Assembly (NCBI GenBank): GCA_951406725.2
Contig: OX597826.1
Location: forward strand, 30,628,001 to 30,692,000
Source: Octopus vulgaris
Taxonomy: Eukaryota
Length of the DNA: 64,000 bases
Direction of reading: 5' to 3'
Below are positions 3,299-64,000 of this stretch, piece by piece. The notes under the pieces are model-generated. The model made no database searches and was not told the origin of the DNA. It worked only from the letters and a program-made list of their open reading frames with translations. The position numbers were made by a program, and so were the translations under genes. Positions within the stretch are counted from its first letter, which is position 1. Each line of letters starts with the position of its first letter.

Positions 3299-3926
3299 AA
3301 GTGGAAGATGCTAACGTACCAATATCTCACATAGGCATGGTTAACAAACTTTCTTTGCAAACGATGTGGTTTCGGGTTCATTCCTAGTTCATGGCATCTT
3401 GAATAACTCTCTTTTTTCTCTTTTACTTGTTTCAGCCATTTGATTGTAGCCATGCTGAGCACCGCCTTTAGTCGAGCAAATCGACCCCAGGACTTATTCT
3501 TTGTAAGCCTAGTACTTATTCTATCGGTCTATTTTGCCGAACCGCTAAGTTACGGGGACGTAAACCCACCAGAATTTGTTGTCAAGCGATGTTGGGGGAA
3601 CAAACACAGACACACAAACGTATACACACACGCACACACACACACACACACACAGACACACACACACACATATATATATATATATATACATATATACAAC
3701 GGGATTCTTTCAGTTTCCATCTACCAAAGCATTCGAAAGCTAAAACGATGCAAAGCGCATTGTGAATCCCAACTGGATAGGGTTGGTTGTATATATATAT
3801 ATATATATATATATATATATATATATATATATAGTATTCTTTTACTGGAATGGTGTTGAGGGTGACTTTGAAATTTCAGCTTGATACGACATTGTCAGAC
3901 AGTCCGAAACTTCGAAGTCACTATCA

Positions 3927-4830
3927 ATGCAATTTTAAGTTACCTACGGACGTACGTTTCGAGATCAAGCTTTAGGATATCATAAGAATTATGATCTCGA
4001 AACGTACGTCCGTAGGTAACTTAAAATTGCATGATGGATTGCCGTCATTTCATTCTTTCTTTCTTACCTGTCTGTGTTTGCCTTTTAAGTGCTGTGTTTT
4101 TACTGAGATCCCCCCTTTTAGTAGAAGGAATAGCTATATCTCTTTGACTGCTATTTCTAAATTCGGTGTGTTGGTGAGGCAATTCGTTGCTAAACCCTTA
4201 ATTACTTAGTATTACTTAAATTTTCCTCGAATGGGGCTTTTACATACCGAAATCTACTTGGTGTAATTGATAATTATCCCTAATTAATTAATTTCACCCT
4301 TTTATTATTACTGATAACCATATTTTATCCCAGTAAATGACCACAGCATTTTGTCTTGGCCGCACGCGGGTGGAAGGGGGCTGGTGACACAAACTTTCAT
4401 TCAAACTTTGAATTTCGTGGTACTGGTCATGCTTTGGCTCGCTCTGACACTGAGTTGAGATGACGCATTCTAGTATCTCAAAATTTAATATACAATTATT
4501 CACAATTGTAGTATCCTGCGCCGATGAGAGAAGAAGTCTGGGTAAAGTAGAATTTTCTAATTCTTATGATATCCTAAAGCTTGATCTCGAAACGTACGTC
4601 CGTAGGTAACTTAAAATTGCATGATGGATTGCCGTCATTTCATTCTTTCTTTCTTACCTGTCTGTGTTTGCCTTTTAAGTGCTGTGTTTTTACTGAGATC
4701 CCCCTTTTTAGTAGAAGGAATAGCTATATCTCTTTGACTGCTATTTCTAAATTCGGTGTGTTGGTGAGGCAATTCGTTGCTAAACCCTTAATTACTTAGT
4801 ATTACTTATATATATATATATATATATATA
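3927..4830 (+). mobile_element. non-coding PLE/retrozyme-like element: inverted 5' fragment + 590-nt partial tandem + (TA)n
   Basis: 227-bp direct repeat 3992-4218 / 4582-4808 (1 mismatch seen). 3927-3991 is the reverse complement of 4558-4622. Contains a hammerhead. Confidence 0.8.
4515..4606 (+). ncRNA. type I hammerhead ribozyme (U4C core variant, long stem II)
   Basis: Stem I CCTGCG/CGTAGG; core CCGATGA; stem II GAGA...TCTC with a long hairpin; GAAA; palindromic stem III ACGTACGT; cleavage triplet GTC ending at 4600. Confidence 0.75.
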
Positions 4831-6246
4831 GTATTCTTTTACTGGAATGGTGTTGAGGGTGACTTTGAAATTTCAGCTTGATACGACATTGTCAGACAGT
4901 CCGAAACTTCGAAGTCACTATCAATGCCATTTTTATTAATGGCTAGTGAATGTGTATGTACTCTGCAAAAAGTGTTGTTGAATCCTTCAGTTAAATGTAA
5001 AATTGTTTTTAATATAATCCAACATGAAGGCAACGAGCTGACAGAATCGTTGGCAAACCGGGAAAAATGTTTTGCAGCATTTCGGCAGTTTCTACGTTCT
5101 GAGTTCAAATTCCGCCGCGGTCGGCTTTGACTTTCATCCTTTCGAGGTCGATAAATAAGTACCGATTGAATACTATAATCGATTTATCCCCTCCCAAAAT
5201 TGCTGGTCTTGTTCCGATATTTTAAACCAAAATAAACATAAAAACAAACCTTCGCTCCTTTTTTTTTTTTTTTTTTTCGTTCTCACTCCATTGTTTTTCT
5301 TCTCAATGTTATCTGTGAAAGAGCGTAGGCTCGAAACGTCAAAGCTTTTCCCATTCTTTTCGAGCGTTAAACTAATACACATGCTTATTGTTCCCTCACC
5401 TGTCTTCGTCTTTTGTTTTCTCTAAATTTGAAATTTATATATATATATTCAAAAGAAAATTCAGCGAGGTAGACATAAAATTTAATACATTAATTTATCA
5501 AACTTTCAAGATATACAAAACAAATGGAAGGAAATTCGTAAACATTTCAATGGATTCAAACGTAATTAGCGTTAATTAAAATTACAGCTGATTATCTCTT
5601 TCTCTGCGACTTCCATTGTGTTCTGTCAAACACAAAGAGAGAACGAATGAAATGATATATAGCAGCTTTCTCTTCACCGCCTCTTACTTTATCTACGAAT
5701 AGTATTCTTCAGAGATTGTCGTCGGATTGTGTTTAAAATGATGGCAATTAGTTATCGTTAAGAGTTTAATATTTAATTACCTGGAGGAATTTCTTGTGAC
5801 ATTCAATAAAAACTAAGCGAGTACACTCATTGGTAACCTGTTTCAATGAAATGTCTAGCCTCATGAATAGTTTTATAAGTTTCAACATGCGGTTCATGAG
5901 CAAATGCCAATTACTGTAACAAACGTCTGTGTATAGAATGAAACATACACGAAATAAGCGTTTGAATTCCTTCGTTGGCAATGGCTGTTTTTGTAGTGTA
6001 TCTAATCGGTAGTAATACGTGATTGGCTCTTTACACTATTGACAAAAGCAACGTCTATCCAAAATATAGGGTTTGGGACTGTTTTGGAGGCAGTATCTAA
6101 GGGCTTCCACGCATATATATATATATATATATATATTACGTTTATATATATTTTTTGTTCAAGATTTTTTATGTTAAGTCGTGTGTTGAAACAGACATTG
6201 TTGTATTTCGGAATGGTCATTTTGCCAGTTTAGCCAATAAAAACAC

Positions 6247-61152: not shown

Positions 61153-62453
61153 ATATCAGGTCATGAAGAATGAAATATCCTATTTTGAACTGAAAGTTTA
61201 TTTTACTTATTTTACTTTATCTCAACATAAAGCAATGCAATTAATCAAAGTATGCACCTAAATTATCAACACGACTTTGCCATTTTACCAGTAGCTTATT
61301 TATGCCGGTAGCAAAGAATTCTAGAGAGTAAGAGGTGACGAAGTCGCGAAAGGCTGTTTTTGCATCTTCTTCAGATTTGAAGTTTTTTCTTGCCAAAAGT
61401 TGTCTTATGCCTGAAAAATGCGATAGTCAGTTGGTGTAAGGGCTGAGGAATAAGGTGGATGACAGAGTACTTCCAAGTTCAGTTCCAGTAACTTAAGTAG
61501 CATTCTTTGTGCAACATGTTGTTGAGTATTGTCTTGCAAGAGAATCGGTCTGTCTCTATTGACCAATCTCAGTTGTTTAATTGCAAGTTCATTCATCATT
61601 TCATCCAATTGGTTGATGTATACATCTGCTGTAATTGACTTACCAGGTCTCATGAAGCTGTAGTGGATGATACCAGCGCTGGACCACCAAGCAGACACCA
61701 TTAGCTTTCTTTGATGAATATTCTGTTTTGGATTGTGCTTTGATACTTTGTCTCTATCCAACCACCATGCAGAATGCTTGCTAGTGTTGAAAAGAATCCA
61801 TTTTTCATCACACATAACAATACAATGCAAAAATGGTTCACTTTTATGCCTGGACAGCAAAGAACAGCAAGTTTCAAGATGACATGTCATTTGATGCTCG
61901 TTCAGTTTGTGTGGTATCCACTTGTCCAGCTTCTTTACCATGCCGATTTGTTTCCGATGGTCCAATACAGTTGGAATCAAAACATCAAACCTTGCTGCTA
62001 ACTCATGCATAGTTTGAGATGTATCCGCTTCCACTACAGTTTCCGGTTCATCATTATCCACCTTGGTTTCAGGTCTACCACAGGGCTGATTTTCAAGAGT
62101 AAAGTCACCAGACCAGAACTTCTCAAACCATCAACATACATCTTCACCAAATGCCACATCTTCACCAAACACCTCATTGATGTTTGGAGCTGTCTGAGAT
62201 GCATTGGTTCCACTATGGAACTCATATTCATAAACAACACAAATTTTTTATCTATCCATGGGAACACAGAAATTCATTTACAAGAGAAAACCCACAATAT
62301 AATCAAACACCATGAACTGCATTTCAAAAAGTGATTATGTAAGTCTTCAATGTTTTAAAACAAAGAATTGTCAGGATAAAACATTAGAGTTAATGACTGT
62401 CAAGCTTGGTGCATAAGAAAATCGGACATTGCATTCTTAATGACTTCATACTA
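61153..62453 (-). mobile_element. full-length decayed mariner transposon (~1.3 kb)
   Basis: Imperfect ~30-bp TIRs (GTCATGAAGAATGAAATATCCTATTTT vs reverse complement GTCATTAAGAATGCAATGTCCGATTTT) around a transposase. Confidence 0.85.
61241..62259 (-). pseudogene. mariner (D,D34D-type) transposase pseudogene
   Basis: WIPHKL, CDEKW, LQDN and HPPYSSALTPTDY motifs; in-frame stops near the N-terminus and at 61405. Confidence 0.92.
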
Positions 62454-64000
62454 TACACACACACACACACACACAAGCTCCGTATAACACCTACCAAATT
62501 TCACTTACAAGGCATTGATCTACCAGAGGGCCATGAAGCGGAAGCAAACCCAAAGCCACACAGTTACATAACAAACATGTTAACCACACAGCCACGCCTG
62601 TATCAGAGCTGAATCCTTAAAGAGACAAGCCAATCGTGGGGAGGGTCACGTCATGATTATTTGATTTGCTAGAAACAGTAACTTGTAAATTTCACTCAAA
62701 CCCACATCCCTATGATCTTTCAACAAAAGTAAGGAATCAGGTTAACAGAAATCAGTTATTAATGAAAAGCTGCGATGGTCACATGTGGAAAGCCTTCAAT
62801 GTTAAGTTTAGTCAATCAGAGCTGACCTGGTTGGCTAAACAGCACAACGAAGAAACAGATGATTTATGATGCAGTGTCCACTTTGCTCCAATCTGGGTTG
62901 AAATTCTGCTTGGAGGTAACTTTACCTTTCATACATAAAAGTTTAATAAAATGAAATCAATGTCATGTACTCAGATCAATCACATTATAAACCCTTGCTT
63001 CGAACAGTTCTGGCTTTGTGCCAAGTGGAAAAAAAAAAGTAAAAGAAAAAATCTATATTTATTTAAATTGAATTTGGCTGATAATCTTCAGAAGTGTGTG
63101 AGATGAACTTCACTGGCCCTGTTAGGTCATCAGAGCACTGACCAGTTGGTCTTCGCATCATTCATACAATATAAGATTTCACACACATACATACACCACC
63201 ACAACCACCAACACTACCCCCACCACCACCACCACCACAACCACCACCACCATCATCATCATCATCATTAGTACAATTCTACAAGTTTTTATATTGCTTC
63301 TTTTAATGCAAACAATGTCACTTCTGCAGCATTATATTTTGTAAATCTATAAATATGAAAGTTCTCTTTATTTCTCTCTCTCTCTCTCTATCTCTCTCTC
63401 TCTCACACACACCCTTTCTGTTTTGCCTTTTTACTTGTTTCAGTCATTAGGCTATGGCCATGCTGGGGCACGGCCTTGAATGGCTTAGTCAAACAAATCG
63501 ACCCCAAGACTTCTGCTCACTTTCTTGCTGTACTGCTTAGTTACAGGGACATTAATAAACCAACACTGATTATGAAGTGGGGGAGATAAATACACATGCA
63601 CGCAAACACAGCTATATATATATATATATATATATATATATATAGTTAATAAAAAAAAACAAAGGAAGAGCATAACGTAAGGACATGGTACATGCAAAGA
63701 TTTAGCAGATGCACAGGAAAGGAAAGAAAGTTAGTTTTACATTTTGAGCAAAGCTCTTCTTCAGGAAACAGGAGACAGAGGAAAGTTCAAGAGAAAAGGA
63801 AGACAGAGGGAAAAAATTGCCAACGATCCACATGTAGTTACATTTATATATATATGATGGGCTTTCAGAATCCATCTACCAAATCTGCTCAGAAACTTAA
63901 CCAAGGTGGAATCATGCAGTTGGGAAGCAGATTTCTTACCACGCAGCCATGCCAGCACCTATATGTGTGTGTATGTGTGTGTGGCTGTCTGGTAAGAAGC

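Follow-up and report, generated by a model that had tools for sequence, protein, structure and literature searches.

The 64,000 nucleotides of Octopus vulgaris DNA analysed here (NCBI GenBank assembly GCA_951406725.2, contig OX597826.1, forward-strand positions 30,628,001 to 30,692,000; hereafter the window) contain a series of short motifs resembling hammerhead ribozymes. A sequence-only reading had taken them for a diverse retrozyme-like fauna mobilised by Penelope-like elements (PLEs), and the question is whether they are that, or remains of the PLEs themselves. Our best reading is that most sites are 5'-truncated PLE ends and not retrozymes. We put at roughly 0.7 the probability that several PLE families inserted into this repeat-rich DNA, leaving mostly truncated 3' ends, with one element (E) being an amplified non-autonomous derivative.

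About a dozen motifs had been claimed. Site-by-site inspection and a descriptor search of the window, applied to the 13 sites, show that the motifs are real but fewer, with eight plausible type I hammerheads (four intact cores, one U3-A8 covariant and three with a single core change), four degenerate sites and one without a core:

C3 at 49599, 56972 and 57346, plus strand: intact core with helices I and II, found by the descriptor.
C3 at 49390, minus strand: intact core, helix II of just three contiguous pairs; passed one descriptor scan and failed another.
U3 at 15688, minus strand: U3-A8 covariant, called by hand and by folding; below the descriptor print threshold.
C3 at 4521, plus strand: single core change, C4; found by the descriptor.
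C3 at 8664 and 10928, plus strand: single core change, U6; found by the descriptor.
C3 at 5313, plus strand: degenerate, 5' box with two changes.
C3 at 8101, minus strand: degenerate, helix II broken and A15.1 lost.
C3 at 63764, minus strand: degenerate, G12 lost.
C3 at 6355, minus strand: degenerate, C9, helix I of 2-3 pairs at most; fails the descriptor.
13550: no hammerhead; helix II and GAAA with the 5' box absent; another 5' box stands apart at 13600 but lacks a usable GAAA or helix I.

The core is closed by helices I and II at 8 of the 13 sites, with helix I just 3 bp at 57346 and 15688. The combination of CUGANGA and GAAA boxes with a U-H cut site failed at 5313, 6355, 8101, 13550 and 63764. 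Cores carrying C4, U6 or C9 would be expected to cut poorly; a literature search found no paper on a U4C core. The distribution is clumped: the stretch 4.5-15.7 kb holds eight of the 13 sites, and there are no sites at all between 16 and 49 kb.

As a control, the window was compared with 30 local dinucleotide shuffles of itself. The relaxed descriptor (at most one change) gave 6 matches in the window against a mean of 0.33 and a maximum of 2 in the shuffles, while perfect matches numbered 3 against 0, placing motif density above that of shuffled sequence. Rfam returned no match in the window at the gathering score and no ribozyme family among its weak matches (the best 150 of 177, and 87 of 87); across the gathering and E-value thresholds there was merely microsatellite and hairpin noise. 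A chance origin of the motifs from repetitive, AT-rich sequence, as the 31 CUGANGA boxes in the window, the weak single-sequence folding z-scores of the small motifs and the lack of Rfam matches might suggest, is extremely unlikely, being largely refuted by the shuffles and countered both by family A, whose best-conserved columns are the core and helix II, and by a common E variant that changes a U-G pair to U-A; it applies at most to 13550 and 6355.

Pairwise comparison of 12 elements separated them into eight unrelated groups (A to H), in keeping with the proposal of at least six. Group A has five copies, all 3' ends:

5290..5435, plus strand: degenerate hammerhead (C3 at 5313), TA at the end; high summed depth over 5309-5434.
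7966..8126, minus strand: degenerate hammerhead (C3 at 8101).
8555..8788, plus strand: minimal hammerhead with U6 (C3 at 8664), TA at the end.
10780..11088, plus strand: minimal hammerhead with U6 (C3 at 10928), TA at the end.
63645..63850, minus strand: degenerate hammerhead (C3 at 63764), TA at the end.

Aligned, the five copies have in common a 3' portion of ~125-165 nt ending at TA, and their 5' extent varies. Most family A contigs in public runs begin at or within the core; a metagenome scan for the family A motif gave no match. The groups other than A and E are:

6152..6510, no strand: element B, outward-facing inverted arms 6247-6343 and 6414-6510 (97 nt at 95%) and, on the minus strand, the hammerhead-like C9 motif (C3 at 6355).
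12873..13688, plus strand: element C, a non-coding partial tandem with a period of 694 nt (122 nt at 96%; longest stop-free frame 73 aa).
15548..15830, no strand: element D, outward-facing inverted arms (arm score 130, shuffle maximum 44) and a minimal hammerhead with U3-A8 on the minus strand.
49305..49700, no strand: element F, outward-facing inverted arms (138 nt at 91%) with a minimal hammerhead in each (49390 minus, 49599 plus).
56465..57260, plus strand: element G, a 5' fold-back of 230 nt, a non-coding body and an intact hammerhead (C3 at 56972).
57275..57580, plus strand: element H, an intact-core hammerhead (C3 at 57346), then (TA)16, then a tail-like module.

The inverted or partial-tandem layout ascribed to nearly all motifs holds for E, B, C, D, F and G and fails for the five A copies and H. 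The two arms of F are separated by a microsatellite. Element C has no complete hammerhead core, and neither twister nor any other ribozyme family was among the Rfam matches listed. The G hammerhead spans 55 nt from A9 to G12, with a basal helix II of 12 bp and a palindromic helix III; its predicted cut lies after 57045, its z-score is -2.9 and its active-type fold is at most 1 kcal/mol from the MFE. That of H spans 59 nt and has a weak helix I, and its active-type fold lies 11.8 kcal/mol above the MFE. Both thus have long helix II arms, as E does, and are unrelated to it. A tail module common to G was considered and rejected, its score falling within the shuffle range. Equating the long-arm hammerheads with the "missing" Naiad ribozymes gained no support: the window lacks two Octopus Naiad 3'-end motifs. 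In the Naiad, Chlamys and Hydra consensus files, none of six short motifs taken from the window elements matched an element end.

A link to PLEs is supported by these layouts and by an endonuclease remnant. Remnants of two PLE GIY-YIG clades had been proposed:

6700..7207, minus strand: remnant of a GIY-YIG endonuclease, frameshifted, from a PLE of the Hydra clade (phmmer match P0001, E 4.5e-4, in a database of 1.84 billion proteins).
10114..10378, minus strand: possible C-terminus of a second PLE endonuclease, by eye only, followed by an AT-rich UTR to 9563.

The first is confirmed. P0001, which is similar to eukaryotic GIY-YIG clusters, matches the remnant with a pairwise E of 4e-12, and the GIY-YIG domain has a Hydra-type cysteine pattern on both sides of the core, matched by eye to Fig. 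S2 of Craig et al. 2021 (PMC8557442). This remnant adjoins element B, with a possible link to it. The second stays a candidate: it had no Pfam, homologue or locus match, a metagenome scan gave no match, and a GIY-YIG cluster ranked 28th (score 0.86) offers no more than a lead. Pfam, run on 22 frames (five stretches in several frames and one ORF), detected no RT and no GIY-YIG, just two mariner-type transposase remnants. Word-based searches with both endonuclease remnants and P0001 found no homologue and no full-length parent, which is weak evidence. A candidate third endonuclease end at 8324-8490 was rejected; merely 25 nt are common to it and the UTR of the 9563-10378 remnant, with a score in the shuffle range.

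The proposed association with TA tracts is supported. A (TA)4+ tract lies at most 300 nt downstream of 11 of the 13 sites, compared with 28% for unmasked positions drawn at random (binomial p 4e-5, weakened by a local TA rate of 53% within 3.8-16 kb and by the non-independence of the 13 sites). The 49390/49599 pair of element F has no TA end.

The order of events at a TA tract can be read at element E:

3834-4933: element E overall; unit of ~590 nt, 37% GC, no ORF.
3790..3929, plus strand: upstream target-duplication copy, (TA)22 and a unique flank of ~96 nt (95 of 95 nt match 4831-4925).
3927..3991, minus strand: inverted piece, the reverse complement of 4558-4622 (65 nt at 100%).
3989..4216, plus strand: partial upstream terminal repeat (pLTR-like) with only the GAAA half of the hammerhead (direct match 3972-4216 / 4564-4806).
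4217..4302, plus strand: tail-like module of ~85 nt, 3' of the terminal repeat, common to the segment downstream of H.
4303..4806, plus strand: body and 3' end of the non-coding unit.
4515..4606, plus strand: type I hammerhead, C4 core variant; predicted cut after 4600.
4807..4933, plus strand: downstream target-duplication copy, (TA)12 and flank.

The exact target duplication of ~120 bp (103 nt at 99% in self-comparison) includes the TA tract, with 22 repeats upstream and 12 downstream. The tract therefore preceded the insertion, so that of the two roles proposed for (TA)n, targeting stands and seeding fails at E. The inverted piece joins the flank via a short microhomology. With a direct repeat period of ~590 nt, this locus holds just 1.4 units and one complete hammerhead; the longest stop-free frames in 4217-4806 are 89 aa on the minus and 73 aa on the plus strand. 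The hammerhead has a helix I of 6 bp, an 8-nt palindrome as helix III (self-duplex -9.8 kcal/mol) and 61 nt from A9 to G12, predicted to form a long hairpin; its active-type fold reaches -27.2 against an MFE of -31.1 kcal/mol. The tail module aligns with 57490-57580 at a local score of 88 (shuffle maximum 35) and, by analogy with Frangieh et al. 2024 (PMC11167929), may be the RT start region. The possibility that the 3' end of E repeats its own tail was rejected (score 23, shuffle maximum 28).

In public runs, the summed contig depth of E, which is not a copy number, reached 36,109-760,864 across 4217-4804, the flank having 35-158. In two DNA runs that bear different organism codes, the entire unit exceeded the flank in depth by a factor of hundreds to thousands, and the non-coding middle showed no collapse. 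Whether tail and body form one unit bears on a second reading, in which everything, E included, is debris of autonomous PLEs and E a one-off template jump or internal deletion joining a high-copy tail to a 3' UTR that is likewise high-copy. Run X1 (80% read), where depth drops to 3,972 and 500 at 4301-4303, speaks for it, as do the tail module standing alone after H and the alignment of some diverged contigs ending at 4282. However, in run X16, four of five contigs over 4361 extend left through the tail module to 4269-4282, three of them with 11-14 differences, and one X18 contig does likewise; these ~10%-diverged contigs (three X16, one X18) cross 4282-4400. X16 and X18 are possibly RNA runs and consist of contigs; we do not take their cover of E as expression. 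Run X3 gives gapped alignments at 4301 in five contigs and at 4303 in three, and none of the listed contig pieces leaves the E middle for other sequence. By a 31-letter rule, position 4300 is bridged by one contig among those listed, 99% identical and possibly this very locus; two others have 28-39 unaligned letters left of 4282. No contig spanning the whole unit was found in the public runs, and no back-joint was among the 15 of 58 joints listed, with 4795-4840 (the repeat zone with the junction) skipped. We consider the all-debris reading improbable. Its sequence and cover make it look like a non-coding, independently amplified PLE derivative, and probably a new non-autonomous family.

A third reading holds that most or all groups are retrozyme-like, that is, transcribed, self-cleaving, circularised and reinserted by PLE proteins. 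Animal retrozymes have been proposed as PLE derivatives of 51-972 bp, often monomers. E, C, G and H have no ORF, E and C are partial tandems whose non-coding periods are short (590 and 694 nt), in G a non-coding stretch of ~280 nt precedes the intact hammerhead, and a circle would allow E to cross the cut site twice. Against this, two complete tandem hammerheads occur at no locus of the window, family A is 5'-truncated, C has no core, and cleavage was unnecessary for insertion in the sole PLE studied in vitro (PMC11167929). We regard this account as unlikely. The "fauna" fits E, which looks independently amplified and is non-coding, and is unsupported for the other seven groups: truncated autonomous PLEs leave such hammerheads (PMC8557442, PMC4209133), the A copies have one 3' end and differing 5' ends, and complete tandems are absent.

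E resembles the animal non-LTR retrozymes (Cervera and de la Pena 2020, PMC7229834; Li, Clavereau and Pollet 2026, bioRxiv 10.64898/2026.07.22.740005) in being short, non-coding, below 45% GC and repeated, with a type I hammerhead and a PLE-derived look. It differs in its 1.4 units, single complete hammerhead here, atypical core and long helix II, and in its PLE-style inversion, tail and target duplication within a TA tract. A search confined to the literature turned up no account of cephalopod elements that are non-autonomous and carry hammerheads; these hammerhead variants may already be described elsewhere.

Under the preferred reading of truncated PLE ends with an amplified E, a PLE protein would nick AT-rich DNA, here chiefly pre-existing (TA)n tracts, and RNA would be reverse-transcribed from a start just 3' of the hammerhead. 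Early stops would yield 3' ends of 150-500 nt that carry the hammerhead, often plus an inverted second piece, and these would decay afterwards. E would keep the cis parts (hammerhead, terminal repeat, tail module) and be amplified as a unit in trans with no ORF of its own. Its insertion crosses the predicted cut site twice, which implies an uncleaved multimer or a ligated circle as template, not a cut linear monomer, and the palindromic helix III could let two hammerheads cleave as a dimer. We infer the priming mechanism, tail function and dimer cleavage by analogy with the literature. Each element was presumably mobilised by an autonomous family, and groups A, B, D, F, G and H are probably ends of coding elements; apart from E, further groups might also be non-autonomous, as none of the elements was linked physically to an ORF of its own.

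Most of these features have precedents. Minimal type I hammerheads sit in PLE pseudo-LTRs (Cervera and de la Pena 2014, PMC4209133), where a U3-A8 variant occurs and most are single copies or form pairs on opposite strands, 100-700 bp apart. Groups A, D and F agree with it in their short helix I, unpaired base after A9, palindromic or absent helix III, U3-A8 and single or opposite-strand arrangement. Differences are U6, which all local copies (3 of 3) of one A subfamily have, and the 55-61 nt from A9 to G12 in E, G and H, far beyond the 6-8-bp helix II described in the sections consulted. Inverted 5'-truncated copies, tails and a (TA)n bias are known from PLEs (Craig et al. 2021, PMC8557442); outward-facing inverted ends, partial tandems, the tail and TA targeting are published too, Octopus included, and Octopus vulgaris reportedly has 31 PLE families of recent activity. 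Catalogued families include an Octopus one of the Hydra clade that has a canonical hammerhead and prefers (TA)n. Hydra-clade PLEs, Hydra-1_Obim of Octopus bimaculoides among them (PMC8557442), are like the window in the endonuclease motif order of 6700-7207, (TA)n preference, a hammerhead close to the 3' end and inverted truncated copies, whereas the remnant here is broken, with no hammerhead assigned to it. The long loop 2 hammerheads in the same paper are those of the spike-moss PLE-X1, with 29-34-nt loops. In vitro work on PLEs has reported an internal RT start, a tail and AT-rich cleavage; Poseidon PAc of Anolis carolinensis (Frangieh et al. 2024) ends downstream of its hammerhead, with an optional tail and AT-rich targets, as in the window. 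Its tail, however, is 30-40 bp at the ORF start, while the candidate tail of E is ~85 nt and leads into non-coding sequence.

The window as a whole is the expected PLE footprint where PLEs abound, and as such changes little. E, with its clean target duplication, tail module and lack of an ORF, is a small, naturally occurring system in which to ask whether PLEs mobilise animal retrozymes and what role the hammerhead plays in PLEs. A bolder proposal, which we advance only tentatively and think rather doubtful, is that E, G and H form a class of functional PLE-linked hammerheads (55-61-nt helix II arm, 8-nt palindromic helix III) missed by Rfam and short-spacer descriptors, and that E is a non-autonomous PLE parasite of very high copy number, its C4 core fixed, which moves via a circular or multimeric RNA of ~590 nt and has a protein-binding or RT-start module of ~85 nt common to an unrelated family. 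If so, thousands of ribozymes would be uncounted in cephalopod-type genomes, and a comparison of E with H would reveal which minimal cis signal PLE mobilisation needs. To judge from the long-arm hammerheads, counts based on short-spacer descriptors (7-17 nt in Craig et al. 2021) miss some PLE ribozymes.

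The reading we favour, at a probability of roughly 0.7, is that the hammerhead-bearing repeats were laid down by Penelope-like element (PLE) activity, with one short element, E (3834-4933, a unit of about 590 nt), riding in trans. Pairwise comparison of 12 elements gave eight unrelated groups (A to H), in line with the at least six that a sequence-only reading had proposed. The descriptor used for type I motifs called for a 5' box, GAAA, a U-H site, a short palindrome as helix III, and helices I and II of no fewer than 3 and 4 bp; perfect matches lay at 49599, 56972 and 57346, and matches with one core change at 4521 (C4), 8664 (U6) and 10928 (U6). 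A looser descriptor run additionally recovered 49390(-), and the minus-strand motif near 15656 carries U3-A8, a covariation known from Schistosoma PLEs (Cervera 2014, PMC4209133). The about one dozen hammerhead or hammerhead-like motifs claimed earlier therefore reduce to 8 of the 13 sites that are plausible by sequence; of the remaining five, four are degenerate (6355 and the family A copies at 5313, 8101 and 63764), and 13550 lacks an assembled core. Rfam gave no hammerhead match at gathering score, and none stood among the weaker matches listed (150 of 177 and 87 of 87).

Published PLEs show many of the same features. Minimal hammerheads occur in thousands per genome, mostly single and ascribed to probable truncated PLEs, and opposite-strand pairs are spaced 100-700 bp apart (Cervera 2014, PMC4209133). 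PLE copies are inverted and 5'-truncated, with tails and a (TA)n bias, and an Octopus Hydra family combines a canonical hammerhead with a TA preference (Craig 2021, PMC8557442). Animal retrozymes are tandem non-coding hammerhead repeats of probable PLE origin (Cervera 2020, PMC7229834; Li 2026, bioRxiv 10.64898/2026.07.22.740005), and the active ones are recognised by two consecutive complete hammerheads (Li 2026). Unlike these, no locus in the window carries such a pair; because of this, and because the published PLE features fit, most of the motifs are best read as ordinary debris of PLE activity. That all groups are retrozymes is thus improbable, and the retrozyme-like fauna mobilised by PLEs that had been proposed narrows to E, which is likely non-autonomous. 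In passages of an Octopus vulgaris annotation (PMC13282606), 31 recently active PLE families are described and the word 'ribozyme' is absent.

Element E runs from (TA)22 and flank, through an inverted 65-nt piece joined via microhomology and a partial terminal repeat, to an ~85-nt module, a body that contains the hammerhead, a complete terminal repeat, and (TA)12 and flank. Since the upstream and downstream flank copies accompanying these tracts are identical (95/95 nt), the TA tract lies within a target duplication of ~120 bp and is older than the insertion. The longest frame in the unit is at most 89 aa. Contigs from four public sequencing runs (X1, X3, X16 and X18) were placed on 4217-5460 at 80% likeness; summed depth, which is not copy number, was 45,050-760,864 (X1) and 36,109-708,552 (X3) per bin over 4217-4804, falling to 35 and 158 in bin 4847-4888 of the flank. 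Being high in every bin, it shows that the non-coding middle of E is repeated about equally with the hammerhead. Four of the five X16 contigs covering 4361 reach leftward to 4269-4282, across the ~85-nt module; three of these four and a single X18 contig differ from E at 11-14 letters and so represent other E copies. Counting against the unit, the sole contig with 31 letters either side of 4300 is 99% identical, two contigs hold 28-39 unaligned letters leftward of 4282, X1 cover at 4301-4303 is almost absent (with 80% of X1 read), and the whole unit is spanned by no contig. On balance E is quite probably a true non-autonomous family, and the view that everything including E is PLE debris, which these gaps favour, is a little less credible even than retrozymes throughout.

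Chance is a very unlikely source of the motifs, because 30 local dinucleotide shuffles gave no perfect match and on average 0.33 matches with one change (at most 2), against three of each observed, which bears out the proposed excess over shuffled sequence. The suggested association with TA tracts also held: 11 of the 13 sites are followed within 300 nt by a tract of at least (TA)4. The corresponding rate for random unmasked positions is 28% overall and 53% between 3.8 and 16 kb, where TA tracts are dense; the p value of 4e-5 exaggerates the significance because the sites are not independent.

In the mechanism suggested by the literature, PLE proteins would nick TA tracts, RNA would be copied from a start site 3' of the hammerhead, and early termination with second-strand priming would produce short 3' ends and inversions; the same machinery would mobilise E in trans. 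In vitro, a PLE protein cleaves AT-rich DNA, reverse transcription (RT) starts internally, 3' of the hammerhead, with two tail-defining sites, and hammerhead cleavage is dispensable (Frangieh 2024, PMC11167929). The predicted cut site, after 4600, occurs two times in the E insertion, which points to an uncleaved multimer or circle as the template; a cut linear monomer would be unfit, because copying would have stopped at about 206 nt. Cleavage of a putative dimer via helix III is plausible. The ~85-nt module recurs after element H (score 88 versus a shuffle maximum of 35), and the hammerhead regions of H and E are unrelated. By analogy with PAc, the Poseidon PLE of Anolis carolinensis, the module is probably a tail or RT-start region; the copy behind H may instead be a short insertion of its own, since (TA)16 intervenes.

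Elements E, G (56465-57260) and H (57275-57580) have A9-to-G12 spacings of 61, 55 and 59 nt, with cleavage predicted after 4600, 57045 and 57423. Their palindromic helix III is 8 nt, with computed self-duplex energies of -9.8, -7.0 and -3.2 kcal/mol, and the active-type fold is predicted to be less stable than the minimum-energy fold by 3.9, 1.0 and 11.8 kcal/mol, respectively. A frequent E variant at 4579 replaces a U-G pair by U-A. At 4522, the 40 of 118 variants listed include no alternative base, although 3-9 contigs per run suffice for listing; E as a family therefore probably has C4. The U4C core is present in a viroid; our literature search returned no instance of it. Natural core variants of low activity include A6C (Perreault 2011, PMC3088659), and hammerheads with a long loop 2 occur in the spike-moss PLE-X1 (Craig 2021, PMC8557442). 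A long-arm class formed by E, G and H that standard searches overlook, in which E is a PLE parasite at very high copy number, is a tentative and rather doubtful proposal; Lunse 2017 and Arkhipova 2017 may already cover long-arm forms.

The five copies of family A align over the hammerhead and the next ~125-165 nt, as far as the TA tract, and vary in 5' reach. One subfamily of three copies (5313, 8664 and 10928; 71-79% alike) has U6 in the core throughout, and A6 is kept in the sister copies 8101 and 63764; from this pattern U6 looks ancestral to the subfamily. Groups B, D and F are arm pairs with 3' ends pointing outward; in G there is a fold-back at the 5' end. Partial tandems have periods of about 590 nt in E and 694 nt in C. 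Element C (12873-13688) is a second non-coding partial tandem, terminating in TA/CA tracts; its motif has helix II and GAAA without an upstream core box.

Remnants of two PLE GIY-YIG endonuclease clades had been proposed, of which one is confirmed. The frameshifted remnant at 6700-7207(-) has a sole match, P0001, among 1.84 billion proteins (E 4.5e-4; pairwise E 4e-12). P0001 is similar to eukaryotic GIY-YIG clusters, and the motif order of the remnant, compared by eye, agrees with that shown for the Hydra clade (Craig 2021, PMC8557442, Fig. S2). The other, a possible endonuclease end at 10114-10378(-), was read by eye from the translation and had no match in Pfam, a homologue search or a metagenome scan.

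Separately from the window, Octopus Naiad consensus 3' ends in the records preceding Naiad_Ovul and Naiad_Omin (Craig 2021, PMC8557442) show a closed hairpin, then GAAA, with a CUGAUGA box ~25 nt further downstream, a reversed order of the core boxes; Naiad_Ovul itself is annotated merely 'HHR_half_core'.

The window is 36% GC, with ~15% short tandem repeats and abundant dispersed repeats; its SINEs and the pattern of its microsatellites look octopus-like. Read by eye, its stop-free frames of at least 100 aa included no recognisable intact retroelement gene. Other repeats are as follows.

Other repeats in the window
61405-62130, minus strand: mariner/Tc1-type transposase fragment, 241 aa stop-free (Pfam Transposase_1, E 4e-23)
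14290-14900, plus strand: broken start of a mariner-type transposase (Pfam HTH_48, E 5e-7), with a SINE fragment inserted near 14656-14699
948-1385, 2902-3300, 19647-20057, 22154-22534, 27977-28256, 29256-29550 and others: copies of an internally duplicated SINE-like family
55594-55952: self-inverted fold-back of ~360 nt on a SINE-like piece, arms 78% alike, without hammerhead
43539-43827 / 45518-45800: long inverted repeat pair, 89% over 289 nt
21024-21205 / 21622-21802: long inverted repeat pair, 85% over 182 nt

The two long inverted repeat pairs may be DNA transposon or MITE ends. The internally duplicated SINE-like family has more than 10 copies in the window, one of which (5027-5214) reached a summed contig depth above 20 million, and at least three additional SINE-like families are present (e.g. 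2024-2426, 10412-10557 and 24117-24299).
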